27,272 nt of DNA from a virus (IMGVR_UViG_3300031472_000034:1-27272); one strand, 5' to 3'. Numbered from the stretch's first letter, positions 1 through 22,505 are shown. The notes: a model not told the origin generated them from the letters alone. Made by a program: numbers and translations.

Positions 1-2297
1 CCGTAGCCGTTATTGAGCGCATAGCGACACGTGGGGTAATCGTGGAAGTCGGCAAGATTGATGCCATACGGCTCAAGCGAGCCGACGTCCTGATATGCGG
101 TGGCGTAATTGCCCGATCCCGAGGCGAAGCCGACGACTTCGGGGATGTTGTTCGTTGCGGCAGCCTGAGAGTTCGTCGCCTGAAGCGAGCGAACGGCTTG
201 CGGCCACGTGCCGGAGATTGAGCCATTTGCGTCGGGCTCGTTGTAATTCTGGACCGCGTTCTGACATCCGGCTGGGAGCGGGTTGCTTGCGTCGGGCGTG
301 CCGCTAATGAAGTGGCCGCCCGCAGCGCAGAATGGAGTCACGTAATTTGCGATATTGGATGCGCCAAACGCGCCGTCGCGAACTTGGCGGATGCCGAGGG
401 TATTCAGACCCGCGATTAGCGCAGCGGCATTGCTGTACTGCCCATAGATCGCGTGCGTGTTAACGCCCATCGCGCCGGTCCACTCGCGTGCGCGCGATGG
501 CTGGACGCAGTTCGCCGTGCAAGCGATTGTCGAGACCGGGGTCCCGACCGGAGCTGGGGTCGGGTACGGCACGACCGTGTCGACGGGGATCGGGGTGACA
601 ACGGGCTGCGGGCTATCGGCGACACCCGAGGGGGGCGGCGGCTGGACCGCGGCGGACCAGCAGACCCATTTCGTGGACGAGTTCGTCAGCAACGCGATCG
701 AGAGCCCCGGCACCGCTTGATTTGCGGTCGTGGTGTCGGTCGCGTAATGGAACCCGTACTGCTCGGCCGAGTAGGCGCCGCTCGCGCCATCCGAGACGTA
801 GCCAGTCGGAACGGTCGGTGACTGGTTGCCCGCGCCGTTCGTGCCGCCATCGATCGCGATCCCGTAGACAATGACCGAGCCGATGCGCGGCGCCGTGACG
901 GCGGGGCACGAGACCGTCGCCGCATTGCCGGTATTCGACGCTTCTGCTGCGACCGGGAATTGCGAGTCGGCTCCCGTGAACGAATAGATATAGCCGTCGT
1001 TGGAACCGCCCTGAGACGCGGTGGAGTTCGTCTCGGTCGCTTCACCGGTTGAGACGTGCCAGCCGATTCCCTCGACGACCGAGAAGGCCGCGTCCGTCGC
1101 GACTTGCGCGAAGTTTGTGATGAGCGACGGGCCGTAATTGTAGTAATCGGTGAACCCGACGTCCACTTGTCCAGTAACCGGAGGCGGGGTCGGGGCCCAC
1201 GTGACCGTGTACGCCCCGGCGGTCGTGTATCCGCTGCTGACCTTTTGGATCGCGACGGGAGGCGGATTCGTCCCGACCGGAGCGGCCGTTGGCGTGGGCG
1301 AGGCGGGCGGCGCGGTCGGCGTGACCGTCGGAGCCTGCGTCGGTACCGGAGTAGCGGTCGGGGCGGTGGTGGGAGCAACCGTCGGGGCAGCCGTCGGCGC
1401 GACCGTAGGTGTCGCGGTCGGGGCTGCCGTGGCCGTAGGGGCCTGAGTCGGCGTCTGCGTCGCTACGGGCGAGGGAGCGGGCGTGGCGGGACTATGCGTG
1501 GGCGCCGAGGTCGGAGTCGCGGTCGGGGCGGGGCTCGCCGTCGGAGGAGCATTCGGAGCCGGGGTCGCGGTCGAGCCGGGCGCGCCCGTGAGGACGATCA
1601 GGACCTGGACAATGCTCGAATCGGAGCCCGACGAGGACTGCAGGGCGAAGCCGCCCTGGGTCGGGCCCGAGAGCGTGACGTTCGCGTTATCGTTGATCGC
1701 GCTGTAGAGGACGACTGGCTGCGAGCCAAACGGCCCGTAGCCGACGAAGCGGCCATTCGCGCCGAGCTGGACGTCGGCGGCCGAGCAATTTGTGAGGATT
1801 GAGCCGCTCTGGAGCGGGATGAGCTGCGAGCCGCACGACTGCGGGGCTGGGGTCGGGGACGGGGTCGGCGCGATCGTCGGGACCGGGCTTGCGGTCGGGG
1901 TCGGGCTCGCGGTAGGAGCCTGGGTCGGTGACGGCGTGGAGCCGGTCGGGACGGCGGTCGGGACGGCCGTCGGCGCGCTCGTCGGAGCCGCGGTCACGAT
2001 CGGGGTCGGGCTCGCGGTCGCGGAGCTCGTCGGAGCGGGTGTCGGTGTCGACCCGCAAGCCGTGCGCGTGAAACCGCGTTGCTGCTGCCGCGAGAGGCTC
2101 TCCCACGATGTTTCCGAGATGATCGTGCCGGCCGGGAAGCCGGGCACCAGCCCGATCGAGACGTACTGGTAGCACGACGCGCTCTGCGCGCTCGCAACCG
2201 AGCCGGGGATCGAGATCCCGCCCACGATCGCGGGCGTGCCGCTGAACGTGAGCGCAAGGGTGATGACTGCGGCGAGAACTCGGCGGACCAAGCGCAT
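1..2297 (-). CDS. Large secreted modular protein, 3'-truncated by the window edge (>765 aa): signal peptide, Pro/Thr linkers, beta-rich modules and a clan GH-A glycoside hydrolase domain
   Basis: Hand-translated open frame from ATG 2297 (SD GAGAGGA) to base 1; absent from the ORF track because it has no stop in the window. N-terminus MRLVRRVLAAVITLALTFSG...VASA|QS. C-terminal region has MGVNTH...LNTLGIRQVRDG...NYNEPD (NEP at 234-242)...LADFHDYP, typical of clan GH-A TIM barrels. Confidence 0.8.
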   Translation of the reverse strand, partial: MRLVRRVLAAVITLALTFSGTPAIVGGISIPGSVASAQSASCYQYVSIGLVPGFPAGTIISETSWESLSRQQQRGFTRTACGSTPTPAPTSSATASPTPIVTAAPTSAPTAVPTAVPTGSTPSPTQAPTASPTPTASPVPTIAPTPSPTPAPQSCGSQLIPLQSGSILTNCSAADVQLGANGRFVGYGPFGSQPVVLYSAINDNANVTLSGPTQGGFALQSSSGSDSSIVQVLIVLTGAPGSTATPAPNAPPTASPAPTATPTSAPTHSPATPAPSPVATQTPTQAPTATAAPTATPTVAPTAAPTVAPTTAPTATPVPTQAPTVTPTAPPASPTPTAAPVGTNPPPVAIQKVSSGYTTAGAYTVTWAPTPPPVTGQVDVGFTDYYNYGPSLITNFAQVATDAAFSVVEGIGWHVSTGEATETNSTASQGGSNDGYIYSFTGADSQFPVAAEASNTGNAATVSCPAVTAPRIGSVIVYGIAIDGGTNGAGNQSPTVPTGYVSDGASGAYSAEQYGFHYATDTTTANQAVPGLSIALLTNSSTKWVCWSAAVQPPPPSGVADSPQPVVTPIPVDTVVPYPTPAPVGTPVSTIACTANCVQPSRAREWTGAMGVNTHAIYGQYSNAAALIAGLNTLGIRQVRDGAFGASNIANYVTPFCAAGGHFISGTPDASNPLPAGCQNAVQNYNEPDANGSISGTWPQAVRSLQATNSQAAATNNIPEVVGFASGSGNYATAYQDVGSLEPYGINLADFHDYPTCRYALNNGY
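1261..1580 (-). repeat. Pro/Thr/Ala-rich low-complexity linker (PTAAPTVAPT-type repeats), second linker of the secreted protein
   Basis: Degenerate tandem gtcggg/gtcggc/gtcgcg units on the + strand encoding ...APTATPTVAPTAAPTVAPTTAPTATPVPT... Confidence 0.85.
1846..2055 (-). repeat. Pro/Thr/Ser-rich low-complexity linker, first linker of the secreted protein
   Basis: Encodes STPTPAPTSSATASPTPIVTAAPTSAPTAVPTAVPT...PTPSPTPAP; includes tandem gtcgggacggc units. Confidence 0.85.
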
Positions 2298-2386: not shown

Positions 2387-2776
2387 CTAGTGGACCGGCC
2401 GGTACACTACGGGCAGCATCACGATGCCAGCGGCTCTGGGAAGCGGATGACCGTGGCTATCGCGCGCCCCGATTGTGGCTTGGCCCGCGTCGAGATGCGT
2501 CACGATGAAGCGCGCGTCGTTGCTGACGTTTTGCGGGGAACCGACAATAAGTGGGACCGACGCGAACGGAAACCTCGCGCTGCCGTGCATGGCGTAGCGG
2601 ACGATCCATCGGCAACGCATGGCCGGCGGGACCTGCGCGCATGAGACGAACTCGCCGGACGTCTGCGGGGAAGCGGCGCGATCAGGCATCGCGAGCATTT
2701 TTGGCGCGCTCTGGGGCTTCGAGCTCGCGCAAGCGCTAAGCGCCAGGACCGCAAGCGCGGCGATCGTGCGGCGCAT
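2387..2776 (-). CDS. Predicted lipoprotein (129 aa)
   Basis: ATG 2776 lies 2 nt after the tail-fiber stop (TAAGGATG). MRRTIAALAVLALSAC is a basic n-region, hydrophobic h-region and LSAC lipobox. The 3253 start in the track overlaps the tail fiber and is rejected. Confidence 0.75.
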   Translation of the reverse strand: MRRTIAALAVLALSACASSKPQSAPKMLAMPDRAASPQTSGEFVSCAQVPPAMRCRWIVRYAMHGSARFPFASVPLIVGSPQNVSNDARFIVTHLDAGQATIGARDSHGHPLPRAAGIVMLPVVYRPVH

Positions 2777-2778: not shown

Positions 2779-4506
2779 TTACGTCCCGCGGCAGACGGTC
2801 GAGAACGTCGCGCCGCCATTCGTCGCTGAGCCAAAAAAGAGCGTCGAGCCCGAGCTCGCGCCGGCGAGATAGACGCCCCCGCCGTTCCCCGCCGGGCCGC
2901 TGAACGGCTGCGCGTTCTGGACCGTACTCGCGGGGTCGCACGAGAACGTGAGGTTCGATGCGAACGTCGCGCTGCCGCTGAGGTTGACCGTCGCGCAATA
3001 GTAGTTCGACGTGACGCCGCAATTTGATTGGCTGCTCGCGGTCGTGCCCGTGACGTAGACCTCGTGCCACGTATTGCTGACCGCAGCCCCGCTCGCGTTG
3101 AAGACCGGCGCGACAGGGGCCGTTTTGCTGTAGATCGTCCCGACCGACTGAACGCCTTGCGCGATCAAGCTGCCCGTCACGCCCAAGTCGCCGTTCTGAT
3201 TCATGCACGCTTTGTAGCCGACGTTCGACTGCGCGATCCCGAGCAACGTGCATTGGATTCCCTGCACCGTCGTGCCCGCGCCCGGCTGCGCGATCCGGAA
3301 CCCGTTGTTGCCGTTCGAGAGCCCGACGTAGGCGGTCGTGGGGTCGTTCGCTTGCAGGATGTAGGTCGGGGACGTGACCTGGCTCGAGAACGAGCCGCTC
3401 CCGATGCTGATCGATGAGCCCGAGTTGCCGACGACATTGCCGCTGATCGTCAGATTGTGCGTGACGTTGAATGCGTCGGCGGCAACGGTTCCGGCGTACG
3501 TCGCGTTGCCCGATGCGTCGATGTGCCCGATCTGGGTCAGCGTGCCGTTGGACGCGACGTTGAAGTACCGGAAACCGTATGTCGAACTGGTCGGCACGCT
3601 GAGATTGAAGCCGGGGCCAGGTGCCGCGTCATTTGCGATCGTCGGAAACGTCGGGCTCGGGGCGCCATTGGCTGCGAGAATCAAGGACGCGATCGAGAGC
3701 CCGGTTGTGGCCGGGACGTTGCTCAGGTTCGCGTTCGCGTAATCGCCGTGCGGGAGGTTGAATCCACCGCTCGCGTTAGCGGGCACGAAGCCGTAGAACT
3801 GGTTTGTCGTCGACAGCGTGACGTTCGATTGAGCGAGCGATGTTTGACCGTTCGCGACGAAGACGCTGGCAACGGGAACCCACCCGGCATCGGCCGCCGG
3901 AGCGACCGGAATCGCCGTCGTGGCGGAGCCGGATTCGATCTGGCACGCGACAAAGTCGTTCCGATCGCGATTCGCCGTCTGCGAAATGGTCGTGTTCGGC
4001 GCCGTCTCGAAGAGCTCGGTTTGCGGGGTCGCGTCGACCGTCTGAACTTGGCACTCGATGAGATCCGCAATCGACTGACCCGTCGAGGTCGGGGCCGTGA
4101 ACGGTCCGAGCGCGATCGTTGGTGTCGAGAGCGCGCCTTGCACGAAGATCTGCGTCGGATCGGCCGAGAGCTGGGTCGCGCCGGACCCGTAGACGTTCAC
4201 GTCATCCTGCTGGAACTGATAGACCGAGCCGCGCGTATTCGGCGCCGACGGACCAACTTGCACGAAAAGGCCGGTCGACGGCGTGACGGCGATATGGGAA
4301 AACGCGCCGTTCGTCGAGCCGAACATATCGTAGATGAGCTGGCCGAACCCGAGCCGCACGTCGCGCTGACTCTGGATGACCCATCCCGACGACAGGTTCA
4401 TCCCGTAGTAATCGTTGATGCGGTTGAGCGCGCTCGCCGGAGCGGATCCGATGAGCGCCGCGAGGGCAACAAAAAAAGACGCCCGTAGCGCCGATGCGAT
4501 TCTCAA
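2779..4506 (-). CDS. Tail fiber / receptor-binding protein with N-terminal signal peptide (575 aa)
   Basis: Located directly after the baseplate J and wedge genes. N-terminal region (LNRINDYYG...GLFVQVGP...GSVYQ...PTSTGQSIADLIECQ...APAADAGWVPVASVFVANGQT) resembles the baseplate-attachment domain of myovirus fibers. G/S/T/N-rich beta body. TTG start with SD GAGAGGA. Confidence 0.75.
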   Translation of the reverse strand: MRIASALRASFFVALAALIGSAPASALNRINDYYGMNLSSGWVIQSQRDVRLGFGQLIYDMFGSTNGAFSHIAVTPSTGLFVQVGPSAPNTRGSVYQFQQDDVNVYGSGATQLSADPTQIFVQGALSTPTIALGPFTAPTSTGQSIADLIECQVQTVDATPQTELFETAPNTTISQTANRDRNDFVACQIESGSATTAIPVAPAADAGWVPVASVFVANGQTSLAQSNVTLSTTNQFYGFVPANASGGFNLPHGDYANANLSNVPATTGLSIASLILAANGAPSPTFPTIANDAAPGPGFNLSVPTSSTYGFRYFNVASNGTLTQIGHIDASGNATYAGTVAADAFNVTHNLTISGNVVGNSGSSISIGSGSFSSQVTSPTYILQANDPTTAYVGLSNGNNGFRIAQPGAGTTVQGIQCTLLGIAQSNVGYKACMNQNGDLGVTGSLIAQGVQSVGTIYSKTAPVAPVFNASGAAVSNTWHEVYVTGTTASSQSNCGVTSNYYCATVNLSGSATFASNLTFSCDPASTVQNAQPFSGPAGNGGGVYLAGASSGSTLFFGSATNGGATFSTVCRGT

Positions 4507-4526
4507 TGGGAATCCTCTCTTGTGCG

Positions 4527-5546
4527 CTACGCGCCGCGGTTGTCGGCGTAGACGGGCTGGTAGCCGCCGGCCTTGACGAGCTGCACCATGTCGTCGAGCC
4601 CGCCGCTCGGGGCCCCGATCACACGCGCCGGATTATTCCGATTCGCATACACGAGCTCGACGCAGAGCTGATTCGCGACAAGCCCGACCTGCGCGCTTCG
4701 CGTCGGATCACTCTGCAGATCGAACGTCAAGATCGTCGGCACCACATCGGGCAACGTCCCGACGTCTTGGCCGCCCTGGATGTCCTGCGCCCCGAGCACG
4801 TCTTGCGCGAAATCGAGACCACCCGATCCGCCGGTCGCGGTTGGCTCAAAATCTTGCTGGCCGGCGATGTCCTGCGCGCCTTGAATGTCTTGCGCGGACG
4901 CGGTTGGGGCCGCGAGCGACCCGACCGACGCGAGCCACGCCTCGGCCACGAGCGCGATCGCGGCGAGCGTGCAGCGTGGCGACGAGATCAACGCCGTAAT
5001 TCTAGTAACGAAGAACGGATCGAGCTCGCCCGAGAACCGGATAAGATAGAGGCCGAGATAACGACGCGCCCAAGCGTCGACTTGCGTTCCCGTGCATGAC
5101 CCGAGCCGGATACTTGCGAGCAGGATGCGGGTCTGGAGATCGATCGACGTGAGCGCGACACCGAGCCAGCGCGCGAGCAAGTCGACATTCGCCGGTGCAT
5201 CTGCGAAACGGGCGTGCGGCCACTCGCGGCGCTGCAAATGAGCCCATCCGTTTCGGTCCTTCGAGGGGCTCTCGAACGTGGGGCACGGGACCGTTGTCAT
5301 CGATCCGTCCGCGTTCGGCGCGAACTCGATTGGGAGCGCCGGCGCGCGGCCGGGTTGACCCGAGAACGCGGCAATGTAGGTCTGGCCGGGCGTGATCGGG
5401 AGCGAGCAGCCGCCCGCAACGTCAGTCGTGGCCGATGCGAGTAGCGTCGAGGCGAGGATCGGGGTACCGGCTTGCCAGACGCGCAGGATAATGCCCGGCG
5501 AGAGCGCGCAGCCGTCGACGTCGGTGAACGCGATCCGGACCGCCAT
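4527..5546 (-). CDS. Baseplate wedge protein (P2 gpI / Mu gp48-like) with an extra N-terminal domain
   Basis: Between baseplate J and the fiber. The segment IRLGSCTGTQVDAWARRYLG...RFSGELDPFFVTRI...RCTLAAI matches the usual 'A.G..LD......G..R..GE.D..FR.RI' pattern. Confidence 0.65.
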   Translation of the reverse strand: MAVRIAFTDVDGCALSPGIILRVWQAGTPILASTLLASATTDVAGGCSLPITPGQTYIAAFSGQPGRAPALPIEFAPNADGSMTTVPCPTFESPSKDRNGWAHLQRREWPHARFADAPANVDLLARWLGVALTSIDLQTRILLASIRLGSCTGTQVDAWARRYLGLYLIRFSGELDPFFVTRITALISSPRCTLAAIALVAEAWLASVGSLAAPTASAQDIQGAQDIAGQQDFEPTATGGSGGLDFAQDVLGAQDIQGGQDVGTLPDVVPTILTFDLQSDPTRSAQVGLVANQLCVELVYANRNNPARVIGAPSGGLDDMVQLVKAGGYQPVYADNRGA

Positions 5547-5550: not shown

Positions 5551-6744
5551 CTACTCCTGCGTCACGGAGACGCCGCTCACGACCGCGATCGTGCCGTAGG
5601 GCACCGGGATCGAGGCGTAGCCGCCGTTGAGCAGCAAGTCATCAACGGCCGCGATCCCGGGCACGAGTTGATTGCCGAGCGCGTCACGACCCGTGAGCGC
5701 GTTGTAGGCACCCGAGATCTTGACGAAGTTCGACTGGATATTGCCGGGCTTCTGAATCGGCGTCATCCCGACGCTGTTGACGTACGCGGTCAAGGCAGCC
5801 GTAGCGGCCGGCTGCAACGTCGCCCACGGGACCGTGCCGTCGGGCCGGATGAACGCCGTGATCTGGACCGAGAGCTGCGCGGGCGCATACACGGCGAACT
5901 GCATCCCGCCGGACCGGATTGCGTCAACGGCCGCGTATGCAACCGCAAGCTGGGCCGGGGTTGACGCACCGCCAAGCGGCGCGACGAAGATGCTCTCCCA
6001 CCCGAGCAGCGTCGCGCCCGTCTGGGTCAAGCAGTCGCCGACGCTCACGAGGAGGCCAGTCGCCGCGGCGGCGGTGTAGGAGGCAAGCGGGGTGCCGGTC
6101 AGCCCACCCGCAATTTGAATCTTGAAGCGCGAACGAACGCTCGCGTCCGATTCTGCATCGGTCCCGTTCGTGAAAGCCGCCGGGTTCGTGACGGATTGAA
6201 ATGGCGGCGCGCCCGACTGACCGAGACCCGAGACGATCGTCGCGACGGTGTTGGGAAGCGTGTTGCCGATCGAGCCCGCGCTCGTGCACGAGACCGTCGC
6301 CATGATCTCGGTCGTGTTAGCCGGGAACACGTAACCGCTCGGGCCCTCGTTGCCGTCCGACACAAGCACGTACTGCAACTGATCGGGCGAGCGAGAGAAG
6401 ACGGTCCCGAATGGGATCGTGACCGGGACCGAGGCCGCGCTCGCGAGCGATAGCGAGACGAGTCCCGTCGCGGCATTGCCGCCAGCTCGGAAGATGCCGT
6501 ACGGGGCAACGAGCTGGTCGAGGTCCGCGCCCGTCGCGCTATCGACGTCCACGACACCGGCCACGTAGCCGACCTCGCTTTGAACCGCGAACGCGCCAAA
6601 TGCGGCAGCATCGAAGATCGCGCCGAGTTGGGAGAGGTCGTCTGTGCTCCAGGGCGTGATCCCGTATGCGACGCAGTCGGCCTGGTACTGCTGCACCATC
6701 GCGGCAACGATCTGTTGGCGCGTAAGAAATCCTGGCAGCGGCAT
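5551..6744 (-). CDS. Baseplate J-like protein (P2 gpJ / Mu gp47)
   Basis: Motifs ATGADLDQLVAPYGIFR, ATGLV, IPFGTVF, GSIGN, VTNPAAFTNGTDAESDASVRSRF; 397 aa. Confidence 0.92.
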   Translation of the reverse strand: MPLPGFLTRQQIVAAMVQQYQADCVAYGITPWSTDDLSQLGAIFDAAAFGAFAVQSEVGYVAGVVDVDSATGADLDQLVAPYGIFRAGGNAATGLVSLSLASAASVPVTIPFGTVFSRSPDQLQYVLVSDGNEGPSGYVFPANTTEIMATVSCTSAGSIGNTLPNTVATIVSGLGQSGAPPFQSVTNPAAFTNGTDAESDASVRSRFKIQIAGGLTGTPLASYTAAAATGLLVSVGDCLTQTGATLLGWESIFVAPLGGASTPAQLAVAYAAVDAIRSGGMQFAVYAPAQLSVQITAFIRPDGTVPWATLQPAATAALTAYVNSVGMTPIQKPGNIQSNFVKISGAYNALTGRDALGNQLVPGIAAVDDLLLNGGYASIPVPYGTIAVVSGVSVTQE

Positions 6745-6777: not shown

Positions 6778-7203
6778 TCAGGGATACTGAAGCGTAACGA
6801 CGAACCCGGTGACCGTCGTGAAGCCGACGATGAACGCCAGCGGGTCAACGCTCGTGAACGTGACGGTCGGGGCTGGCTGGGCGACAACGTCATCCATTGT
6901 CGCGAGGCCAGCGAGTACACGGTCACGGATCTCGCTCGCGGCGACCTGCGGATCAAGGCTGTCGACGAGTCGCTGCAACCCGACGCCGACTGTTGGGTGA
7001 AACGCATCGTCGGGCGCGTAGTAGCGACCAGTCGACGAGTCGTACGACCCGGGGGACTGGCTTAGCAGAACGCTAATCCGCTGCTTCGTCGCGAGCGGGG
7101 CGCGAGGCGCGTCAACGACGCCCACGATATCGCCAGTGAGTGGGTCGAACGAGATGTCGCCGCCGACCGGGCAGAGCATCTCGACTCGTGTCGCGGCGGC
7201 CAT
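6778..7203 (-). CDS. Baseplate wedge / sheath initiator (gp25 / gpW-like)
   Basis: 141 aa between spike and J; GDISFD...GD...KQRISVLLSQSPG...FHPTVGVGL pattern. Confidence 0.7.
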   Translation of the reverse strand: MAAATRVEMLCPVGGDISFDPLTGDIVGVVDAPRAPLATKQRISVLLSQSPGSYDSSTGRYYAPDDAFHPTVGVGLQRLVDSLDPQVAASEIRDRVLAGLATMDDVVAQPAPTVTFTSVDPLAFIVGFTTVTGFVVTLQYP

Positions 7204-7206
7204 GCG

Positions 7207-8001
7207 CTACTCCTCGGATTCGCTGACGGAGCTTCCCTGAGCGGTCACGCCCGCGAGTCGTGGAGGCGGAACGCCTGGGCCGCCCTGGACACTCGCGGCG
7301 AGCGTGGCAAGGCCCGTTTGCGCCGATGCGAGCACGCCGTTAACCGCCGCTTGCAGATACGACTCTGTCACGATCGCGTCGGAGGACGAGAGCCCGTCCA
7401 TCCCGATCTCGATCGTCTTCGACGCGCCCTTGAAGATGATAACCAGCGGGCCGAGCTTGAGCGTCAGCGTGTTCGCGTTGTCGTCGACCGTGAGGCCGTT
7501 TCCGGCAGTCGTCAGGACCGAGAGGAGCGCACCCGCGAGCACCCGCGTCGCAGCTTTCCCGTCGCCTTGATTCGCGTCATTCGTTTGCCGGATGTACGCA
7601 TCGATCGGGCCCGGCGTCCCGAGTTTCTGGTATGCCTGCCGATGAACGAGGTGATTCTCGCCCGCGAGCGCGCCTGGCGAGTCATCCGTGCCGTGCTCAA
7701 GGATTGCTCGGTCTCCGGATGCGCCGCGCACGACGAGCACGCGCTCGCCGCCACGCGGACCGCTCTGAAAACCATTTGCGGGCGTGAGAAGCTGAATTCG
7801 CCGCCATACCATCGGCTGCGCGGCCGAGTCACCATCGTCGACCTGCGCGAGCGACTCAAGATCGACAACGTCAACCACGCCTTCGCTCGGATCATAGGTG
7901 CCCCGTAGCACGACCCCGTCGAGCCCCATCTCGTGGCCGCGATCGTGTAGCACCTGCGCCACGATCGTCTTCACGGACGAGACGTATCGGCCGAAGTTCA
8001 T
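7207..8001 (-). CDS. Baseplate central spike (gpV / Mu gp45-like), 264 aa
   Basis: Likely ATG at 8001 (MNFGRY), 2 nt after the hub stop. OB-fold-like YDPSEGVVDV...GFQSGPRGGERVLVV followed by a beta-rich segment (PGALAGENHLVH...GLTVDDNANTLTLK). Confidence 0.7.
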   Translation of the reverse strand: MNFGRYVSSVKTIVAQVLHDRGHEMGLDGVVLRGTYDPSEGVVDVVDLESLAQVDDGDSAAQPMVWRRIQLLTPANGFQSGPRGGERVLVVRGASGDRAILEHGTDDSPGALAGENHLVHRQAYQKLGTPGPIDAYIRQTNDANQGDGKAATRVLAGALLSVLTTAGNGLTVDDNANTLTLKLGPLVIIFKGASKTIEIGMDGLSSSDAIVTESYLQAAVNGVLASAQTGLATLAASVQGGPGVPPPRLAGVTAQGSSVSESEE

Positions 8002-8003
8002 GC

Positions 8004-9461
8004 TCAGAGACCCGATTGAGGAAGCTCGTGATTGACGGCCTCGACCGTGATCGCCCAGCCATCCGAATCGCCCGCCGGATCGTCGCCTTGCGGCGTCGAC
8101 ATCCGGTGCTTGATGCTCTGGGCGCGATAGCGCTTCGGCGGCGCGACGCCCGACAGCACGATCGGCCCAGGCGAGCCGCTCGCACCGCCACTCGTCACGT
8201 CGCGTTCGCTCGACGTGCTGTTGAATGCCGTCCACGGCACGTTCTCGACGTCGAATACCGCCCCACGCCTCAGCGCCGCGACCGTCAACGGCGTCGCCGT
8301 TACCTCGAACGTGATCTGGTATTCGGCTCGCGAGAGTTGATTCCAGAACGTGAGTCGGCGCGCGTTCGCGTACGCAAGATCCACATAGGGAATGCGGAGG
8401 ATATAGTGCTCTTTCCCGTCGTCGTGCGAAAACCCGGCGGAGCCGGTTTGCTGCACGCCACCCGACGACGTCGAGGTATTCGACGACGTGTTACCCTTCG
8501 AATCGATGCTAAACGAAGATGAGCCGTTCCCGCCGAAGATCGGGTGCGAGAACGTATCGACGTTCTTAACCGTCGTGACAGGTTTCCCGTTGACAGTTTT
8601 GGTCCGGTGGTGACTCGCGCTGCGACGCTTCGGATTCGAGACCCGGACGTCGACCTTGATGTTCTTGTTATACTGCGGTGAGTGCTTGCCGCTGAACGAG
8701 TTGAAGTCGCGCCCGAAGAGGAGCGTGATTGAGGGCGCCGGGTTGTCATCCGTCGCGACGTAGTAGAGCGTCATGCCGTCGCCATACAGGCGAGCGCCAT
8801 CTGCCTCAGCGCAACTCTGCAACACATCCCAGACGCGCGCGTCACGCAGCCCGACAACGAGCTCCTTGCCGAACACCTGGGCCATCGTAGCCGCGTTCGC
8901 GTCCAGTCCGTCGCCGATCACAACCTGGAAGCCGTAGCGCGTCCCAACCGCGCGAACGAAGTCGGTCGATCGCTGGCCCGAAGCCGTCGTGGTGATTTTG
9001 GCAGCGGTCAAGATCGAAATGAACGACCGAGCCGAGAACGTCACCTCGCCTGCGAGCCAATTCGGCTCCCAGTTGTCGATGACGCCAAGAAAGACTTGCT
9101 CGAGCTCGCTGATGTTCGCCGGCGCGACCGCATCAGGGTCGGCCGGGAAACCGGCGCGAATCTCAATCGGGACCGACCCGTCCTGCGCGAGCGAGTCGGC
9201 GAGTTGGACGCTCCAATCGGGCATATCGGCCAGCGCGACCGTGACCGTCGCGGTATCGGTCTCGCCATGCGCGTAGAGCTCGACGCCTTGATCGATCGGC
9301 TCGACCGCGTACCCGTTGATGATCGCGAGCCAGCGCGGCGCGTAGTGCTCGTCGCCACCGTAGAATTTGAGCGGGCCCTGCTCGGTGAAGTCCTCGAACT
9401 GGATGCGTCGGTGCGCGGAGGCCGTGACGTGGCCGATGATCGGAAGATTCGAGTCCGTCAT
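8004..9461 (-). CDS. Baseplate hub protein (gpD / Mu gp44-like)
   Basis: 485 aa; IEIRAGF...VFLGVIDN...VTFSARS...LTAAKI...WDVLQSCAEADG..LYGDGMTLYY; ATGA overlap with the upstream gene. Confidence 0.75.
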   Translation of the reverse strand: MTDSNLPIIGHVTASAHRRIQFEDFTEQGPLKFYGGDEHYAPRWLAIINGYAVEPIDQGVELYAHGETDTATVTVALADMPDWSVQLADSLAQDGSVPIEIRAGFPADPDAVAPANISELEQVFLGVIDNWEPNWLAGEVTFSARSFISILTAAKITTTASGQRSTDFVRAVGTRYGFQVVIGDGLDANAATMAQVFGKELVVGLRDARVWDVLQSCAEADGARLYGDGMTLYYVATDDNPAPSITLLFGRDFNSFSGKHSPQYNKNIKVDVRVSNPKRRSASHHRTKTVNGKPVTTVKNVDTFSHPIFGGNGSSSFSIDSKGNTSSNTSTSSGGVQQTGSAGFSHDDGKEHYILRIPYVDLAYANARRLTFWNQLSRAEYQITFEVTATPLTVAALRRGAVFDVENVPWTAFNSTSSERDVTSGGASGSPGPIVLSGVAPPKRYRAQSIKHRMSTPQGDDPAGDSDGWAITVEAVNHELPQSGL

Positions 9462-10405
9462 GCCGTCGTCCCGACGCCGCTGATCGGCGGCAAGATGAGG
9501 CGCTTCTGGGAACCGCGATCGAGAAAGAGCGACGCGAGCCCGTTCGCCTTCGCGATCGCGGTCGCGGAAATCGTCGGCTCGAGACCGGGGTAGTATTGCG
9601 CCCCGAGCTTGAGCAACGAAGTCGAGGCTCCGTCGACGAGCACCGACGACGGCGACTGGCCGCGCGTGATATTGGCCGCGAGGACGCGCAGCGCTGAAAG
9701 ATGCGACGTTGCGGGCAAGACAGCGGCGGAGAGCGCCGGTAGTTTGCCGAGATACGCTTGCGCACGGCCGATCGCCGTCGTGATCGTGGTAAGGGCCGAC
9801 CCCGAGTTCGCCGATCCCGACGCGACGGGCCCGATCGACGCGACCGCCGCATCGATGTCACTCTGCGAGACGAGCGAACCGCTCGCGCCCGGGTCGACCG
9901 ACAAGATCTCGCCATAGCTGCTCGACGCGCTACTGAGATTTGACGCCACGGCCGAGTCGACGCTTGCAGCCGGCGATTTTGCCGTCGAGCTGAGGTCTGA
10001 CTGGACGCTCACCGCAATGTGGTACAGCGCGTGGAACGCCTGATACCACGTGACGACGAAGTCCAAGACGATGACGCGGTACGTCTTGATGCGGCCGGGC
10101 TTCCGCCAAGTCAGTGTCGTCGCTTGCTGCGAATTCGCGAGTGCCTCGAGGATCGCGATTTGCGAGTCGGCATTTTCGAAGAACTCGCCGTCCCAGGCAA
10201 CGTCCTTTGGATGCGACCCGAGCGTTTGGGTCCGGACGCGGCCACCGATCGCGATCTTCTTGACCACGATGGGCGTGACGCCGAACGCGATCTCGCTCGG
10301 AGCCTCGTCGATCGCAAACGTGCAGCCGCCGATCGTCAGCGGGTCGTCGCCCGCTCCGGAAGTCGCCGTCGCAGAGGCCAAGAGAATCGAGGGAACCGCG
10401 ACCAA
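9458..10405 (-). CDS. Tail tube initiator / baseplate protein with C-terminal degenerate LysM (gpU/gpX-like)
   Basis: LTIGGCTF..DEAPSEIAFG...IGGRVRTQTLG...DVAWDGEF; C-terminal SLLKLGAQYY...IAKANGL...LILPP; TTG start with SD GAGGGGG. Confidence 0.7.
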   Translation of the reverse strand: MVAVPSILLASATATSGAGDDPLTIGGCTFAIDEAPSEIAFGVTPIVVKKIAIGGRVRTQTLGSHPKDVAWDGEFFENADSQIAILEALANSQQATTLTWRKPGRIKTYRVIVLDFVVTWYQAFHALYHIAVSVQSDLSSTAKSPAASVDSAVASNLSSASSSYGEILSVDPGASGSLVSQSDIDAAVASIGPVASGSANSGSALTTITTAIGRAQAYLGKLPALSAAVLPATSHLSALRVLAANITRGQSPSSVLVDGASTSLLKLGAQYYPGLEPTISATAIAKANGLASLFLDRGSQKRLILPPISGVGTTA

Positions 10406-10423
10406 GACGACCCCCTCGCTAAA

Positions 10424-10783
10424 TTATGCCGTTGCCGCGACGGCCTCGCCCGGATAGAACTGCAGGCCGCACGCACGGCAGGCTGATCGCACGCTATTCG
10501 GCGCCGCCTCGAGCGCCGCGCGCTTCATCGCCATGCGGCGAGGCAGCATCGCGAGCGACCATAGGCCAAAGATCGATAGCCACGCGCCGAGCGTCACGAC
10601 CGACAGGACGATCACGATCAAGGCGTCTCGCCCGGCTGCCTTCTTGAACCGATACCACGCCAGCAAGTCAGGGTCGCGACTCAGAAAGTCGAGCTGATGG
10701 TCGAGCATCCCGCTCCCACATCGAAGGCACTGGTCTGGGACCTCAACGGGCGACATCCCGAATCCAAACGCTTGATACGACAT
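10424..10783 (-). CDS. Small membrane protein with CxxC-TM-CxxC architecture (moron-like), 119 aa
   Basis: MSYQAFG...CLRC...ALIVIVLSVVTLGAWLSIFGLWSLAML...CRAC; occupies the gap between the tape measure and tube initiator genes. Confidence 0.65.
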   Translation of the reverse strand: MSYQAFGFGMSPVEVPDQCLRCGSGMLDHQLDFLSRDPDLLAWYRFKKAAGRDALIVIVLSVVTLGAWLSIFGLWSLAMLPRRMAMKRAALEAAPNSVRSACRACGLQFYPGEAVAATA

Positions 10784-10789
10784 GGCGCG

Positions 10790-10795
10790 AGTATA
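10790..10795 (-). promoter_or_regulatory. Putative -10 box (TATACT) for a leaderless transcript
   Basis: TATACT-CGCGCC-ATG: near-consensus -10 box 6 nt upstream of ATG 10783, with no SD and no clear -35. Confidence 0.5.
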
Positions 10796-10820
10796 CCGCG
10801 CGTCCAACTCGTATGCGCGT

Positions 10821-13379
10821 TTAGTGCGCGGGAACGAGAAGAGAAGATCCAAGCCGCGGCCCCGTCGCGCTGCCGCGGTTTGAGCCGGAACCCGATGCCG
10901 CCGCATTCGAAGAGCCGTTCCAGAAACGGTCCAGGATGTCGATCGTCTGCTCGGCGTGCTGCTGCGGTGTGCCCTTCGGCAGATTCAGATTCACGGTCGT
11001 CGGCCCGCGGGAGCTGCTCGCGACGGGAATCGTCTGAAGCGGTGTCGCGGCCCCGCGGTTGCGCGCGTTCCGAGGGTCGTAGCTCATCGCGCTCGGGTCA
11101 TTCGGGCCGCCCCGACCCGCTGCCATTGCTCCCGCACCCAACGAGTCGAAGAACGAATTCCCTGCGTTCTTCTTCATCGCAGCGGCAAGCTGCGCATCCA
11201 GTCCGGAGCTGAACTTCGAATTGTCGAAAAGTAGATCTTTCCAGTGCGACTGTGCGTACGCGAGCGCGGTTCCAGCAGCCGACATCAGTCCCTTGATCGC
11301 GGCGGAAAGCCATTGCCCAATCGTCCCGAACGCGTAGCCGATCGTATAGCCAATCCCGGCCTTATTCTTCTCCCACCAGATCCGGACTTGCTTGACCATG
11401 TCAAGCCCGCCGCCCCCAAATAGGAGCTTGAATGCTTCGCGAAAAGCCTCAAGGGCGACGAGCACTTCCGGAATTCCGGTCTCAAGCCCAAGAATCCCGA
11501 TCGTGACCCGCGGGAGCCACTTGGCCGCGAGATCGCCGATCATTCCGCCAAAGCGGCCAAGCGGCCCCCCGAGCTTTCCGAGTGAGTGCTCGACGACTTC
11601 GAACAGGTTGGCTCGAACGGCCCCGTGCTCACCGGCTCGGCGGATTCCAACACTGGCGCCGACCCCGACGCTATGCCGCGCCTCATGCTCGGCAATATGT
11701 GCGAAGATCCGCAGGCCGCCCAGCACCTGGGCGAGCTTCACGACGCCAAGACCGGCACCGACTGTCAGCGCGCCGGTCGCGACGGCCGATTCGCGCGGGT
11801 GCGTCGAGAGAAACGTTGCCGCCCCGCCAGTCGCGCTCGATAGCATCGAGACGAAATGCGTAAGCGGCGCGATCAGCGGGCCAGCGAGGATTGCCGAGAG
11901 CGTTGCGAAGTTCGTTGCCAGGAGCTGCGACTGATGGTTTAGCGACGACATCAGCCGCACTTGAGCCGTCTGGAGATCGGGAATACGGGCGAGCGTCGCC
12001 GTCACGGCCTTGCCCTGCGCAATCCCGGTGTCGCTCGAGAATGCGCCCGCGATTAGCGAAGCGTTCGTGCTGAACGCGCCCGACAGAAGTTGGCCGTATT
12101 CACGTCCGCGCCCCTTGCCGAATTGATGGCGCGTTTGGTTAAGCGCTGCGAACAGAGCCTCGGGATCGAAGTTTCCAGCCCGATCGATGAAGCGCGAGTT
12201 CCCGTGCGCATCGAGCAATCCGAGCCCGGCTTGCGCCGCGTACATCTTGTCACTCGACGGCGAGCGCAGGTTCCGAAGCATCATGTTCAGACCGGTGCCC
12301 GACTTACCGCTCCCGTAGCCGAGACGATCGGCGCGCGCCGCCAGCTTGAGCACTTCTTCGGGCGCGACACCCGCCTGCACGAACGACGAGCCGAAATACT
12401 TGATCTGGGTCTGCATCGTTTTCAGCGAGTCGGGCATGTCGTTGCTGATCTTGTATTCGGTATTCATGAACGGCGCGAGTTGTGCAGCCGTCCGAAGATT
12501 GAGCATGTGCGAGAGCGCAGCCATCTGGGCCGCCGATTGCTCGAACGGGACGTGATTCTTGCCGAGAAACTGCGTATCGGCGAACTGCGCGATCGGCATC
12601 GCGAGTTGGGCCATGTCGCGCGGGTTGTTGAGCCCCGACGTCGCCATCGTGCGCAGCAGGTTCATCGAGTCGGTCACCGACTGGGCGGTGTTCATCGACA
12701 TCCGCATCGCAATCGGCAAGAGATTCTTCTGGACGTAGCCGTCCGGGAGCACCTTCCCCTCGCCCATCGCGAGCCCGGTCTGGATCATCGAGTCTTGAAG
12801 GTTCGCGCGCTCCTTCGTCCCGATCGCGAGCGTAGCAAGCGACACTAGGCCGCCGACGCCAGCAGCGCTGCCGGCGAACCGCATCGCTCCGCCACCAGCC
12901 GTTGCGGCCGCGCCCGCTCCAGCCGCACTCGCGGCACCAGTCCGATTCACCGTTCGAAGGCTAACCGAAGCGGTACGGGCGGCGGCCGTGACGCCTTCGA
13001 GTCGCGCAATCACACCAGTGAACGCGGTATCTGCTTCTGCCGCGAAAGCGGTTGTGGACGCGCCCATCGATTCGACCGACGCATCATACTTACTAGCCGC
13101 ACGCTCGGCCTCAGTCGACATCGCGCCGAGTTTAGCCCCGATGGCCTCAAAAGCGACCGCGATTCGATCCGCCATTGGGAGAATCGATTCAAGTACGGTT
13201 CGGACCTGAGAACCGACGCGGCTAAATGCCGCGAGTGCCTCTGAGGCCCCCGCGGTCGACTTCTCGAGCGCCTCAATGGCCTCGGCCGCTTGAGCCGAAT
13301 ACTTCGCGATTGCGCCGAGCTCGCGCTGGGCGTTCGACTTGAAAAGGTACTCTGCGCCAATCAGGTAGCCGTCAGCCAT
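10821..13379 (-). CDS. Tail tape measure protein (852 aa)
   Basis: Long Ala/Gly-rich helical protein after the chaperones; core resembles TP901-type TMPs (GSGKSGTGLNMMLRNL); ATG 13379 with SD AAGGAG. Confidence 0.88.
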   Translation of the reverse strand: MADGYLIGAEYLFKSNAQRELGAIAKYSAQAAEAIEALEKSTAGASEALAAFSRVGSQVRTVLESILPMADRIAVAFEAIGAKLGAMSTEAERAASKYDASVESMGASTTAFAAEADTAFTGVIARLEGVTAAARTASVSLRTVNRTGAASAAGAGAAATAGGGAMRFAGSAAGVGGLVSLATLAIGTKERANLQDSMIQTGLAMGEGKVLPDGYVQKNLLPIAMRMSMNTAQSVTDSMNLLRTMATSGLNNPRDMAQLAMPIAQFADTQFLGKNHVPFEQSAAQMAALSHMLNLRTAAQLAPFMNTEYKISNDMPDSLKTMQTQIKYFGSSFVQAGVAPEEVLKLAARADRLGYGSGKSGTGLNMMLRNLRSPSSDKMYAAQAGLGLLDAHGNSRFIDRAGNFDPEALFAALNQTRHQFGKGRGREYGQLLSGAFSTNASLIAGAFSSDTGIAQGKAVTATLARIPDLQTAQVRLMSSLNHQSQLLATNFATLSAILAGPLIAPLTHFVSMLSSATGGAATFLSTHPRESAVATGALTVGAGLGVVKLAQVLGGLRIFAHIAEHEARHSVGVGASVGIRRAGEHGAVRANLFEVVEHSLGKLGGPLGRFGGMIGDLAAKWLPRVTIGILGLETGIPEVLVALEAFREAFKLLFGGGGLDMVKQVRIWWEKNKAGIGYTIGYAFGTIGQWLSAAIKGLMSAAGTALAYAQSHWKDLLFDNSKFSSGLDAQLAAAMKKNAGNSFFDSLGAGAMAAGRGGPNDPSAMSYDPRNARNRGAATPLQTIPVASSSRGPTTVNLNLPKGTPQQHAEQTIDILDRFWNGSSNAAASGSGSNRGSATGPRLGSSLLVPAH

Positions 13380-13448
13380 AAAGGGCGGCTCCTTTCGATC
13401 GTCGCGCGATCTCACGTGCTATGCTCGGTCGGTGAGCGCGAGCGCGGC

Positions 13449-13583
13449 GTGCAGTACCTAACCCTGTTCGGACTCGGAATCTGGCTCGCGGTTTCGCTTC
13501 AGCGACCATCGAAGCCACCGCGAAGTCGCATCCGGGGCATCTTCCGCCGAGCAGCGACACGAGCGCGCCGTCGCAATCAGTAG
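13449..13583 (+). CDS. Possible small antisense-oriented membrane peptide (44 aa)
   Basis: GTG-started MQYLTLFGLGIWLAVSLQRPSKPPRSRIRGIFRRAATRARRRNQ fills the roughly 200-nt gap; extended -10 TGCTATGCT at 13417-13425. Confidence 0.35.
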   Translation: MQYLTLFGLGIWLAVSLQRPSKPPRSRIRGIFRRAATRARRRNQ

Positions 13584-14077
13584 CGAACTTGCGACGCGGC
13601 GGCGGTCTCGGCCGCTGCAAGGAACCGCACGAGCGGCTGAACGTCGCCACGCGCGAGCGCCTGAACGGTCAGGTACATTATGCGCTGGACGACAGGCGTG
13701 ATCTCCTGGATTCCGATCCAGATCGCCGGCCGCGGGGGCAGATTGTGCGGCGCGTAGCCGTACTCAAGCCAGACCATCCGCTCGTCGTTCGTCGCGACCA
13801 CGAACCCGCCATCCCGCATCGCGAGTTCGAGCGAATTGCGGAGCTCGCCGGAGCGGAAAAGCGGGTCATTTTCGGAGTAACCGAGTCGGGCACGCTCGGT
13901 CTGGGTCGCCGCCGCAAGCGGCGCGAGCTTCGAGACGTCGCCGAAGACGTTGGTGATGCTCGCAAGAACGAGCCGTCCGATCGCCTCTCGGGTGAGCGCC
14001 TCGGTCACAAGTGACGCGAGCCAGACTCGCCGGGAGTGCTCGGCATAGCGCCGCGCCGACATCGAGATGATCGGCAT
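13577..14077 (-). CDS. HK97 gp10-like / virion morphogenesis neck-tail component
   Basis: LAAATQTERARLGYSENDPLFRSGELRNSL...VWLEYG...PPRP motif set. Confidence 0.7.
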   Translation of the reverse strand: MPIISMSARRYAEHSRRVWLASLVTEALTREAIGRLVLASITNVFGDVSKLAPLAAATQTERARLGYSENDPLFRSGELRNSLELAMRDGGFVVATNDERMVWLEYGYAPHNLPPRPAIWIGIQEITPVVQRIMYLTVQALARGDVQPLVRFLAAAETAAASQVRY

Positions 14078-14080
14078 CGG

Positions 14081-14302
14081 CTACCTCGCTCTCGACCGTC
14101 GTGGTCGATCGTTCGGGGTGTCGTTTCCGCCCTCGCCCTTGATCTCGACGAGAACGGACTTCACGAGCTGCGGCTCGGGTCGTCTCACCCAGCGGGAGTG
14201 TTTGAAGTCCCAACGGCCTTGGCGCGCTTCCCCGACCGCGATCGAAAGCGCCTCGGTCTCGCTGTCCGTCATCGCCATCGTCTCGTCATACGTGAGCCGC
14301 AC
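14081..14302 (-). CDS. Tail assembly chaperone C-terminal extension (gpT-like), probably expressed by -1 frameshift
   Basis: Frame is open from the slippery site at 14350-14356 into this ORF (...LKKLVGAYRGVANLVALDVVRLTYDETMAM...). Confidence 0.7.
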   Translation of the reverse strand: MRLTYDETMAMTDSETEALSIAVGEARQGRWDFKHSRWVRRPEPQLVKSVLVEIKGEGGNDTPNDRPRRSRAR

Positions 14303-14313
14303 GACATCGAGCG

Positions 14314-14685
14314 CTACGAGGTTGGCGACTCCTCGGTAGGCGCCGACGAGTTTTTTAGGTTCGCGGCCTCCGCGTTGAACGCGCGCCCGTACGCTCCAAG
14401 CAACTCGTCGAGTTCATTTGCCGTAAGGCGCTGTAGCCGCTCGTCGAGCAGCAGCATACTCGTGGCCGGTGGAAGCGGATGCCCGTCGATCGCCTGCATC
14501 GCCATCCCCATCCGGTAGTAGGCCATCTCGATCAGATTCGTCGACTCGAGGATCTTCGCGACCCGCATTGACTCAAGCCCGTTGAGCTCGACGAACGAGA
14601 TCTCGCGCCCGCTGCTCTCGCACACATGCGTCGAGACGGATCGGCCGTGCGCGGCCGCATGGGGCGCAGGTGCCTTGGCCGGCAC
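14314..14685 (-). CDS. Tail assembly chaperone (gpG-like)
   Basis: 123 aa directly after the tube (TAGTG overlap); ends ...EAANLKNS, with a slippery heptamer at L-K-N. Confidence 0.8.
   Translation of the reverse strand: MPAKAPAPHAAAHGRSVSTHVCESSGREISFVELNGLESMRVAKILESTNLIEMAYYRMGMAMQAIDGHPLPPATSMLLLDERLQRLTANELDELLGAYGRAFNAEAANLKNSSAPTEESPTS
14350..14356 (-). other. Programmed -1 ribosomal frameshift heptamer A_AAA_AAC
   Basis: CTA AAA AAC in the chaperone frame; the -1 frame is continuous with 14081..14302. Confidence 0.85.
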
Positions 14686-15191
14686 TATAGTGAGAACCCG
14701 TTCGTCACAAGCTGGTTGTCCTCGTCAACGCAGTCCATCGCCTCGAACTCGAACGCGATCTCGATGTCGCTGTTCGGGGCCCACTCGCCGGTCGTCGTGA
14801 TATTGAGGGTCGCCTGGATGAACGAGAAGTTGTCGATCGATCCATCGATGATATTACGCGTGATGGTCGCGATTGTGAACATCGGCTCGTCGCCATTTGC
14901 ACGGAAGCGCGCGTCCTTCGCGAGCTGAAAGCGCTCGATCGCACCGTTGTTCCGGCCGTACGTGAACTCGCCGTGCCACCCCATCGGGATCGTCCGGTTT
15001 TTCCGGAGCCCACGTGTCGTGATCGTTCGACGCTCGCGCTTCTCACGGTCCGGAACGGCGGTGAACCGCATGAAGTCGGGCCCGAAATCGTACTGCACAC
15101 CCTGGTCATCCGTAATGATGATCGCGCGGTCCGTGAAGATGTTGATCTTGCCGTTTTGCGTAGCGGCACCTGTGGGCAGCGGAAATCCCAT
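14685..15191 (-). CDS. Tail tube protein
   Basis: 168 aa directly after the sheath; GWHGEFTYGR...TITRNIIDGSIDNFSF...GEWAPNSDIEIAFEFEA. Confidence 0.8.
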   Translation of the reverse strand: MGFPLPTGAATQNGKINIFTDRAIIITDDQGVQYDFGPDFMRFTAVPDREKRERRTITTRGLRKNRTIPMGWHGEFTYGRNNGAIERFQLAKDARFRANGDEPMFTIATITRNIIDGSIDNFSFIQATLNITTTGEWAPNSDIEIAFEFEAMDCVDEDNQLVTNGFSL

Positions 15192-15223
15192 AACGACCTA
15201 CCTTTGAGAGACGAGGCGAAGAG

Positions 15224-16813: not shown

Positions 16814-16911
16814 GCGCTATACCTCGCAGTGGCGCGCAGGTTGAAAGAGGCTCTACGCGAGAGCGATCGGCACAGGCATGCGCCAGCCAGCGAGAGCCGC
16901 CGGCGAGGTTA

Positions 16912-17175
16912 CTACGGCTTCGGCGCCGCTCCGAGAACCGGTCCGTTGGGCACGCTTGCAATCGGCGGAGCGGCGACGCGCGCGACGGGCACATCCGAAA
17001 CATCCGATTTCGGCGCTTCCGCAGGCTTCTTCATCTCGCCGGCGCGTACGACGTACTGCCGGAGATGCGGGTGCTCGTCCTCGAGCTTCTGCGCGGTCTC
17101 TTCGTCGAGCGTGTCGCCCTTGTAGAGCTTCTTGTCGCCGATCACGATGTGATCGTCTGCAATGACGTGGTACAT
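16912..17175 (-). CDS. Small hypothetical virion-module protein (87 aa)
   Basis: ATG 1 nt after the upstream stop; MYHVIADDHIVIGDKKLYKGDTL...; Pro/Ala-rich tail. Confidence 0.65.
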   Translation of the reverse strand: MYHVIADDHIVIGDKKLYKGDTLDEETAQKLEDEHPHLRQYVVRAGEMKKPAEAPKSDVSDVPVARVAAPPIASVPNGPVLGAAPKP

Positions 17176-17176
17176 G

Positions 17177-18052: not shown

Positions 18053-18099
18053 GGGGAATCAGCCATCAATTCCTCGCGCAAAGTTGGCGCATGTCGTCG

Positions 18100-18336
18100 T
18101 CAGTCGTCTTCGAGCAGCCAAGCTTTCGCCTTATCGACCATCATGTTCGCGTTCGCGACCGTAAGCGCACGGTCGCCGAAGAATCGAAGCTTCCCGGTAT
18201 CGCCGTCGCGCGAGATCGCGAAAACTTGCGCGTCGTCGGGAAGAGCGCTAAGTCGCGCCATGAGATCCGCTCGCGACGCAACCCGCTCGAACGCGGCGTC
18301 GACCCGCTGCGCGAACGTCTTATCGTCATTGCTCAC
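18100..18336 (-). CDS. Hypothetical protein (78 aa)
   Basis: GTG 4 nt after the upstream stop; MSNDDKTFAQRVDAAFERV...AKAWLLEDD. Confidence 0.55.
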   Translation of the reverse strand: MSNDDKTFAQRVDAAFERVASRADLMARLSALPDDAQVFAISRDGDTGKLRFFGDRALTVANANMMVDKAKAWLLEDD

Positions 18337-18340
18337 GGCG

Positions 18341-19117: not shown

Positions 19118-19144
19118 GACGCTACCTCGACCGGACCTGAGTTC

Positions 19145-19699: not shown

Positions 19700-19735
19700 G
19701 AGGCTTCCTTTCGCGCCGCGATGCGGCCGAGCGAT

Positions 19736-19770: not shown

Positions 19771-19791
19771 GCCGCGACGCGGAACGATGAT

Positions 19792-20610: not shown

Positions 20611-20628
20611 GCGCCGCCCCTTCCGATC

Positions 20629-22499: not shown

Positions 22500-22505
22500 T
22501 GACAC

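Follow-up and report, generated by a model that had tools for sequence, protein, structure and literature searches.

Particles of tailed phages are taken to be complete in the cytoplasm before lysis, and the lactococcal receptor-binding protein (RBP), TssK and eCIS anchor systems assemble in that compartment as well. The S74 chaperone found on some fibres is normally cleaved off. Exported products of tailed phages are known as accessories: Sec or SAR endolysins, spanins, exclusion lipoproteins and morons. In Ff/M13, pIII is a receptor-binding virion protein that has a cleavable Sec signal, is oxidised in the periplasm and is held by a C-terminal membrane anchor until assembly.

Docking of fibres and fibre-like trimers on a wedge has been described in several systems. 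In the T6SS, two TssG loops each insert three hydrophobic residues in the cavity of a TssK trimer, and this cavity is made by the first 15 residues of TssK (PMC6300606). The wedge of Pam3 has two triangular platforms for two fibres (PMC9942802). The eBAP3-5 anchors of eCIS form a comparable shoulder-type system (PMC12923769), and in T4 the long fibres join fibreless particles in a separate step (PMC3004832).

Among fibres of cultured phages, gp49 of Ralstonia phage Raharianne and gp600 of Komagataeibacter phage phiKX2 are signal-less proteins with the same N-terminal domain as the fibre analysed here (fibres of this type against our domain: tblastn E 1e-5; HMM E 3e-53). Raharianne, and also Albius and Hyacinthe, carry between the wedge gene and this ordinary fibre a 550-aa gene (Raharianne gp48, L025:10233-11885) with an apparent signal peptide at its start; over residues 64-550 its product is matched by tail or fibre proteins from 45 further Ralstonia phage records. 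The Raharianne wedge protein also has an additional C-terminal LD-rich tag.

The DNA that we analysed, called the window, is a viral stretch of 27,272 nucleotides. It is a fragment of a contractile-tailed phage (myovirus), with a CheckV completeness of 34%, and holds the following features.

6778..27179, minus strand: rest of the head-tail module, from PHROG and Pfam matches
5551..6744, minus strand: baseplate J wedge protein (PF04865, E 7e-23; phrog_6, E 2e-39)
4527..5546, minus strand: gpI/TssG-like baseplate wedge protein, assigned by its position after baseplate J, no signal peptide
4513..4519, minus strand: GAGAGGA, Shine-Dalgarno-like, 6 nt before the TTG at 4506, read from the sequence
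4506-2779, minus strand: tail fibre gene, 575 aa
4429..4506, minus strand: predicted Sec/SPI signal peptide, residues 1-26 (n-region 1-9, h-region 10-20, c-region 21-26 with an A-S-A end), called from the sequence, a feature conserved in 100 of the best 150 clusters
4471..4492, minus strand: terminator-like hairpin (stem 4492-4478) plus T run, overlapping signal-peptide codons 5-12
3781..4428, minus strand: N-terminal baseplate-attachment (shoulder) domain, residues 27-242 (model pLDDT 95, with fold matches)
3166..3780, minus strand: Gly/Ser/Thr/Asn-rich swappable shaft with Cys pair 419/434, mosaic among close relatives
2779..3165, minus strand: C-terminal tip domain and stop codon, with Cys 496, 504, 523 and 572 (model pLDDT 69)
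2387..2776, minus strand: predicted lipoprotein, 129 aa, signal ending L-S-A-C
1..2297, minus strand: large Pro/Thr-repeat protein with a signal peptide, truncated at the window edge

The head-tail module at 6778..27179 includes part of the terminase, the portal, scaffold, capsid, neck, sheath, tube, tape measure and hub region, and an N-terminal check of its ORFs found no signal peptide. Within it, two small ORFs between tube and tape measure (14081-14685, minus strand) resemble a tail-assembly chaperone pair, and a 119-aa gene directly after the tape measure (10424-10783, minus strand), conserved in L004, encodes a protein whose hydrophobic central part lies between two Cys-x-x-C motifs, one at either terminus. 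The fibre gene directly follows the baseplate wedge genes, an order shared by 15 loci, and starts 20 nt after the wedge gene, whose stop TAG is at 4529-4527. The lipoprotein gene begins 2 nt past the fibre stop, and L004 and L006 have similar genes in this position. Terminator-like sites lie at 4492 and 2344, the latter belonging to a strong hairpin (2324-2344, minus strand) between the lipoprotein and Pro/Thr-rich genes. The L006 counterpart of the Pro/Thr-repeat protein (L006:12884-20359) is a signal-bearing protein of 2491 aa with long Pro/Thr linkers between many domains, one of them glycoside-hydrolase-like by eye; a Pfam search of it gave nothing past a weak PT repeat.

The closest named relative of the fibre is 76% identical and lies in a Vulcanimicrobiota genome (L004). 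Matches were obtained in 5 of 401 Vulcanimicrobiota genomes, one of which (G170) was a false positive on a large transporter and was dropped; all five true copies in the remaining four genomes have the leader. On this kinship we infer that the host of the window phage is a member of the Vulcanimicrobiota. In G204 and G221 host genes flank the phage genes, which identifies these as prophages. Both (G204:C1, ~2.62-2.67 Mb, and G221:C33) end beside the same host block of fabH, fabD, fabG, acpP and ffh (named by eye), which suggests that they share an integration region.

The fibre frame opens with MRIASALRASFFVALAALIGSAPASA, followed by LNRINDYYG. A preliminary description of this locus had proposed a basic n-region, a hydrophobic h-region and an A-S-A box, and all three are present: the n-region has a net charge of +2, the top uncharged 10-residue window has a mean hydrophobicity of 2.69 (Kyte-Doolittle), and A-S-A ends the c-region. 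The strong Shine-Dalgarno that it placed before the TTG is GAGAGGA, and codon 27, which it had read as CTC at the mature start, is indeed CTC (Leu), leaving no usable start at the domain. The next ATG is codon 36 (4401), and no Shine-Dalgarno-like sequence lies ahead of it. Only 3 of the 27 ORFs in the window reach a hydrophobicity of 2.0 or more, namely the fibre, the lipoprotein next to it and the Pro/Thr-rich protein that follows. A simple signal-peptide rule, with thresholds chosen after the fibre sequence was known, was passed by 5 of 1864 start codons (both strands, whole window) at three sites: the fibre gene, the Pro/Thr-rich gene and one spurious plus-strand site. By signal peptide we mean here this n/h/c pattern together with its conservation.

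A first search for relatives returned 15 proteins, 13 of them with the leader; a fourteenth shows it at the DNA level, and P0015 is without it. Two viral scans for relatives found none, and a search of the ESM Atlas gave only unnamed viral clusters (0.91). Nine rows of the mature domain (eight leader-bearing, one leaderless) were used to build a profile, which matched 1823 clusters, and the best 150 of these were examined; because the profile comes mostly from leader-bearing rows, this sample leans to leader-bearing members. In it, 100 clusters have a hydrophobic extension of 19-64 residues, the hydrophobic h-region being part of the definition of the class, and 39 start at the domain; the rest are truncated (5), have a short extension (5) or have a non-hydrophobic one (1). 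One of the 39, P0007, had seemed a leaderless close relative but is mis-called, as its DNA (L004) encodes a leader.

The n-region is positive in 98 of the 100 extension-bearing clusters, and 88 have a small-x-small motif directly before the domain start, at the point where signal-less relatives begin M-D/N-R. Ala occupies position -1 in 82, and the n/h/c features are kept in ~90 of the 100, at 30-50% identity. Homology to relatives starts at L27-N28-R29, where the preliminary description expected it, and the M(D/N)R start that it gave for cytoplasmic relatives opens 30 of 38 as MDR or MNR. Its placement of the leader exactly in front of the domain holds as a rule but fails for P0005, P0017, P0028 and P0095, in which 4 to ~40 extra residues lie between the likely cleavage site and the domain. 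Met stands at +1, just past the cleavage site, in only 8 of the 100, so most extension-bearing proteins cannot start at the domain.

DNA was available for 85 loci with 69 distinct family ORFs; 8 of these carry a hydrophobic extension, 41 are closed off upstream by a stop no more than 19 codons away, and the other 20 are open upstream without being hydrophobic. The leader-bearing and leaderless states are thus both real. In a quick tree made from 158 rows less 5 truncated and 4 near-duplicate ones (149 rows in all), the leaderless proteins fell on one side of a branch with 99% support, except for P0007 and P0073. The latter, leaderless and cysteine-free, is nested among leader-bearing proteins, and possibly represents a return to the cytoplasm or a mis-called start. 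With six distant paralogues as root, a free quick tree of a 63-row subsample nested the leaderless proteins in the leader-bearing ones with weak support; when the leader-bearing rows were constrained to form one group, the tree scored higher by 42.9 log units and was not rejected (p-AU 0.935). The preliminary description had seen a selected acquisition of a signal peptide. Selection is borne out, and from the sequences compared the leader would be a genuine trait, under selection, of a large clade of fibres; acquisition over loss is favoured, with the rooted trees compatible with either direction.

The DNA that encodes the leader has a second property, the terminator-like hairpin at codons 5-12. 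Such a hairpin occurs in 8 of 12 leader-coding regions, compared with 3.7 expected from synonymous recoding, and in 3 of 16 host signal regions, compared with 2.7 expected. Four later loci gave 2 of 4 (L137 only with its corrected start), for a total of 10 of 16 compared with 4.0 expected (P 4e-4), in a pattern that was spotted after the fact and among related loci. Overall RNA folding of the start region does not stand out (z -1.17), and terminators are no more numerous in the region than in shuffles (5 vs 2.8 +/- 1.9). At leaderless loci, a terminator lies just upstream of the fibre start in 22 of 60 cases vs 1.4 in shuffles, and two of these translate in frame as LRAAFFV, close to LRASFFV in the window. 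These data suggest that a terminator has been retained at this operon boundary with the leader overprinted on it, and the leader may have arisen from this terminator.

The same overlap, and the similar Ala/Phe-rich text that terminators upstream of signal-less relatives yield in frame, could mean that there is no export signal, the leader being a mis-called start, a translated terminator with no role in the protein, or an uncleaved membrane anchor. We consider this very improbable in view of the n/h/c features shared by ~90 of 100 clusters at such low identity, the Ala at -1 in 82 of them, and the even-Cys signature described below. A mis-called start in particular was rejected, as the preliminary description had argued, because the Shine-Dalgarno stands at the TTG with none at codon 36, and because the n/h/c pattern is family-wide, with an extension in 100 of the best 150 clusters and small-x-small at the domain start in 88.

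Searches of Pfam and PHROG with the window fibre gave no match; the domain alignment gave one weak match in PHROG, in 1 of its 9 members, and nothing better than E 0.3 against PDB sequences. The predicted fold of the N-domain matched the lactococcal RBP (Z 8.6, rmsd 4.3, 144 aligned), the p2 baseplate (Z 7.7) and TssK (Z 7.6), values in a range that the fold tool calls common, and the first 13 of 15 matches were phage RBP, fibre, baseplate or T6SS/CIS parts. The best PDB match in Foldseek was TssK, at a weak E 0.039; the best in BFVD had E 3e-15, among many viral RBP matches. For the last 128 residues the matches were the Pam1 tailspike RBD (Z 7.6), the R2 pyocin fibre (Z 5.9) and AP22 gp53 (Z 5.7). 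The docking domain is the most conserved part of the protein, and shaft and tip are swapped among close relatives. As judged from sequence and predicted fold, the window protein is a myovirus tail fibre of the shoulder-domain type. With its leader and without a usable start at the domain, it would have a fibre-like function and would not be a standard cytoplasmic member.

An S74 fibre chaperone was matched in 19 of 22 relatives that had been hand-picked for a chaperone-like end, 12 of them above the cut-off. A transmembrane segment was found at the C-terminus of seven relatives, all leader-bearing; with a looser scanning window, P0014 and one leaderless protein were flagged as well. In these seven (P0004, P0005, P0006, P0034, P0061, P0066 and P0077) the terminus opposite the leader has an S74-like chaperone, a coiled coil and the transmembrane segment, with no Pfam S74 match in P0077. 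Proteins of the P0004 type would be tethered outside the inner membrane until self-cleavage.

The gpI/TssG-like wedge protein has two tandem triple-repeat loops of the AQDIQG type, at ~4895-4848 and ~4808-4761 (alignment A5), which by analogy with the T6SS we propose as docking sites for two fibre trimers. Loop type and fibre gene set agreed in all 15 loci compared. Seven of them (the window, L001, L004, L006, L029, L138 and L139) have signal-bearing fibres only, with a second loop that resembles the first (in L138 and L139 it only begins like it) and no WYLD-x-S-x-LD loop. The other eight (L002, L003, L027, L030, L134, L137, G204 and G221) have an extra leaderless paralogue just upstream, and their wedge proteins carry one repeat loop and one WYLD-type loop or variant. 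Four of the 15 loci were fetched after the rule had been written down, and all four fit; the two contigs of G302 and L007 were excluded, as they come without upstream DNA. Fisher's test gave p 1.6e-4 for the 15 loci, which are non-independent (the window, L004 and L006 are close, as are L002 and L003, and L138 and L139), and 0.018 for eight lineages before the last four loci. A search with the gpI-like protein returned only 2 proteins. In most loci of this group the wedge protein (4527..5546) has an N-terminal extension of ~90 residues, which proteobacterial wedge proteins and L030 do not have. L138 and L139 show no leaderless fibre in their modules; in both, baseplate J and the wedge gene are separated by another fibre-like gene, whose product is signal-bearing and Cys-rich (L138:4080-6731, 883 aa; L139:3350-6637, 1095 aa).

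That the wedge loops track the fibre gene set suggests that the exported fibre would still join the virion. Most simply, the repeat loop would be the dock for this fibre family and would have been kept, even doubled, for the exported form. No signal-less paralogue was present in the available DNA, fragments only, of the window, L001, L004, L006 and L029. Since the window itself is a fragment, a cytoplasmic fibre could be encoded elsewhere, and in the 8 of 15 loci that own a leaderless fibre, an exported one is not needed on the virion.

The protein could instead be an exported, fibre-derived decoy or surface protein that is never on the virion, with a cytoplasmic fibre from elsewhere arming the particle; its role would be receptor masking (superinfection exclusion) or action on host surface sugars. 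Besides the adjacent paralogue in 8 of 15 loci, several observations agree with this and count against a role in the virion. The fibre heads a run of exported, cargo-like genes (lipoprotein, Pro/Thr-rich protein), seven relatives have a transmembrane C-terminus, and L006 retains the block despite an apparent large deletion of most head and tail genes. On the other hand, the triple-repeat loop is kept or doubled exactly where only signal-bearing fibres occur, and the conserved docking domain with swapped shaft and tip is what working fibres have. Moreover, the gene sits in the fibre slot with a gap of only 20 nt to the wedge gene, positions 2000-7000 contain no sigma-70-like promoter (by a consensus that may not be the host's), and in at least six of the seven anchored relatives the membrane segment comes after an S74 chaperone, a part that is normally removed. 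We therefore regard a decoy as unlikely. As for L006, its large terminase frame fuses into the end of a gp25-like gene (L006:6460-7730) and the portal-to-hub genes are gone, with fibre and exported genes intact; it is either a cryptic prophage or a mis-assembly.

Cysteine content differs between the two kinds of fibre. Mature proteins have an even Cys count in 91 of 100 extension-bearing vs 18 of 38 leaderless clusters (Fisher p 1e-7, a value that overstates independence because the clusters share ancestry), and for the N-domain alone the counts are 97 of 100 and 23 of 38. Of Cys152 (4053-4051, minus strand) and Cys188 (3945-3943, minus strand), 51 clusters have both and no cluster has only one, and 13 clusters have a second pair in common. 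In the model (pLDDT 95), with the register taken from the secondary-structure string, Cys152 and Cys188 lie on opposite strands of one long hairpin at about equal distance from its turn. A pair that is always joint or absent points to folding in an oxidising compartment. VKOR is encoded in 4 of 4 host genomes tested, and DsbB was not found in these four. As a positive control for Cys parity, host signal-bearing proteins failed, with an even count in only 5 of 11, in a small and noisy set that includes lipoproteins, and this counts against the parity argument. Cys pairing goes with the signal-bearing side of the tree and is not a property of the whole family.

Taken with the conserved leader and the loops, we think it fairly likely that this is an exported, disulfide-bonded fibre that would dock on the wedge loops at lysis, as sequence, structural model and analogy all suggest. 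The precursor would be exported by Sec and trimmed at A-S-A, its disulfides would be made outside the cytoplasm by a VKOR-type pathway, and it would trimerise there, in some members by way of a membrane-anchored S74 chaperone. At lysis the compartments would mix and the fibre would dock on the triple-repeat loops of the cytoplasmic wedge protein, for which it would need to meet particles during lysis, before dilution. Cleavage falls at the first residue of the domain probably because the shoulder N-termini form the docking cavity, as in TssK, in which case a long leftover leader would usually obstruct docking.

A mixed fate was also weighed, in which export is inefficient or blocked late, some precursor is built into tails in the cytoplasm, air oxidation after lysis forms the disulfides, and the exported share is accessory. 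The 8 of 100 members with a Met right past the cleavage site fit this, as do the virion disulfides of Pam3 and Milano, for which the parts of the accounts considered report no export step, and the TTG start with its overlapping hairpin, which suggests regulated, low expression. However, 92 of 100 members are unable to start at the domain, an uncleaved hydrophobic leader of 26 residues on each subunit would, by analogy with TssK, cover the docking cavity, and paired cysteines go with the signal-bearing proteins, as noted above. We consider such a mixed fate quite improbable, though less so than the absence of any export signal.

For the lineage as a whole, we put at even chances a joint reading in which Vulcanimicrobiota myoviruses combine two-compartment assembly, dropped cytoplasmic fibres, fibre pick-up and an overprinted leader. 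Naked tails would form in the cytoplasm and fibres in the periplasm, where a membrane-anchored, self-cleaving chaperone would retain some of them, and tails and fibres would meet at or after lysis. Several members would be without cytoplasmic fibres, their baseplate loops rebuilt for exported ones; particles could take fibres from co-resident prophages or neighbouring cells; and the leader may be overprinted on the terminator found ahead of the fibre gene in related loci.

In the open-access literature searched, we found no description of exported fibres of tailed phages. Term searches of PMC12946066, PMC12143355, PMC12923769 and PMC10811340, two of which are fibre catalogues, gave nothing on exported fibres, and in PMC12923769 "signal peptide" occurs in the reference list only. 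The likeliest reading is an assembly route so far undescribed for tailed phages. If true, an exported, disulfide-bonded fibre fitted at lysis would be a new way to assemble a particle. It would explain how fibres can use disulfides, would make host-recognition parts swappable without a change of genome, and would mean that pipelines that file signal-bearing phage genes as non-structural cargo miss receptor-binding proteins. The proposed docking pair, a shoulder trimer and a short repeat loop, is small.

Of the systems above, Raharianne and phiKX2 share the gene arrangement of the window, the fibre coming after baseplate J and a gpI-like gene whose repeat loops are Gly-rich. Unlike the window fibre, theirs start M-D-R with no leader and are without Cys152/Cys188, and a cytoplasmic chaperone-like gene is often next. 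The shoulders of lactococcal phage RBPs (1358, p2) and TssK of the T6SS are like the window N-domain in predicted fold, at Z 7.6-8.6. TssK/TssG further share with the window two wedge loops, a three-fold hydrophobic pattern in each, and two trimers (PMC6300606). Cyanophage Pam3 and Agrobacterium phage Milano have disulfides in tail parts, and Pam3 docks two fibres per wedge; its bonds join fibre to wedge, whereas the Cys pairs of the window lie within the fibre, beside an export signal, and the portion of the Pam3 account considered makes no mention of an export step (PMC9942802). The exported accessories of tailed phages are, like the window fibre, late-operon phage genes that use host export, but they are not fibre homologues and have no matching baseplate docking loop. 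Ff/M13 pIII, the nearest precedent considered, resembles the window fibre by its route only, with no sequence relation, and Ff particles, unlike those of the window phage, leave by extrusion across the membrane without lysis and have no baseplate.
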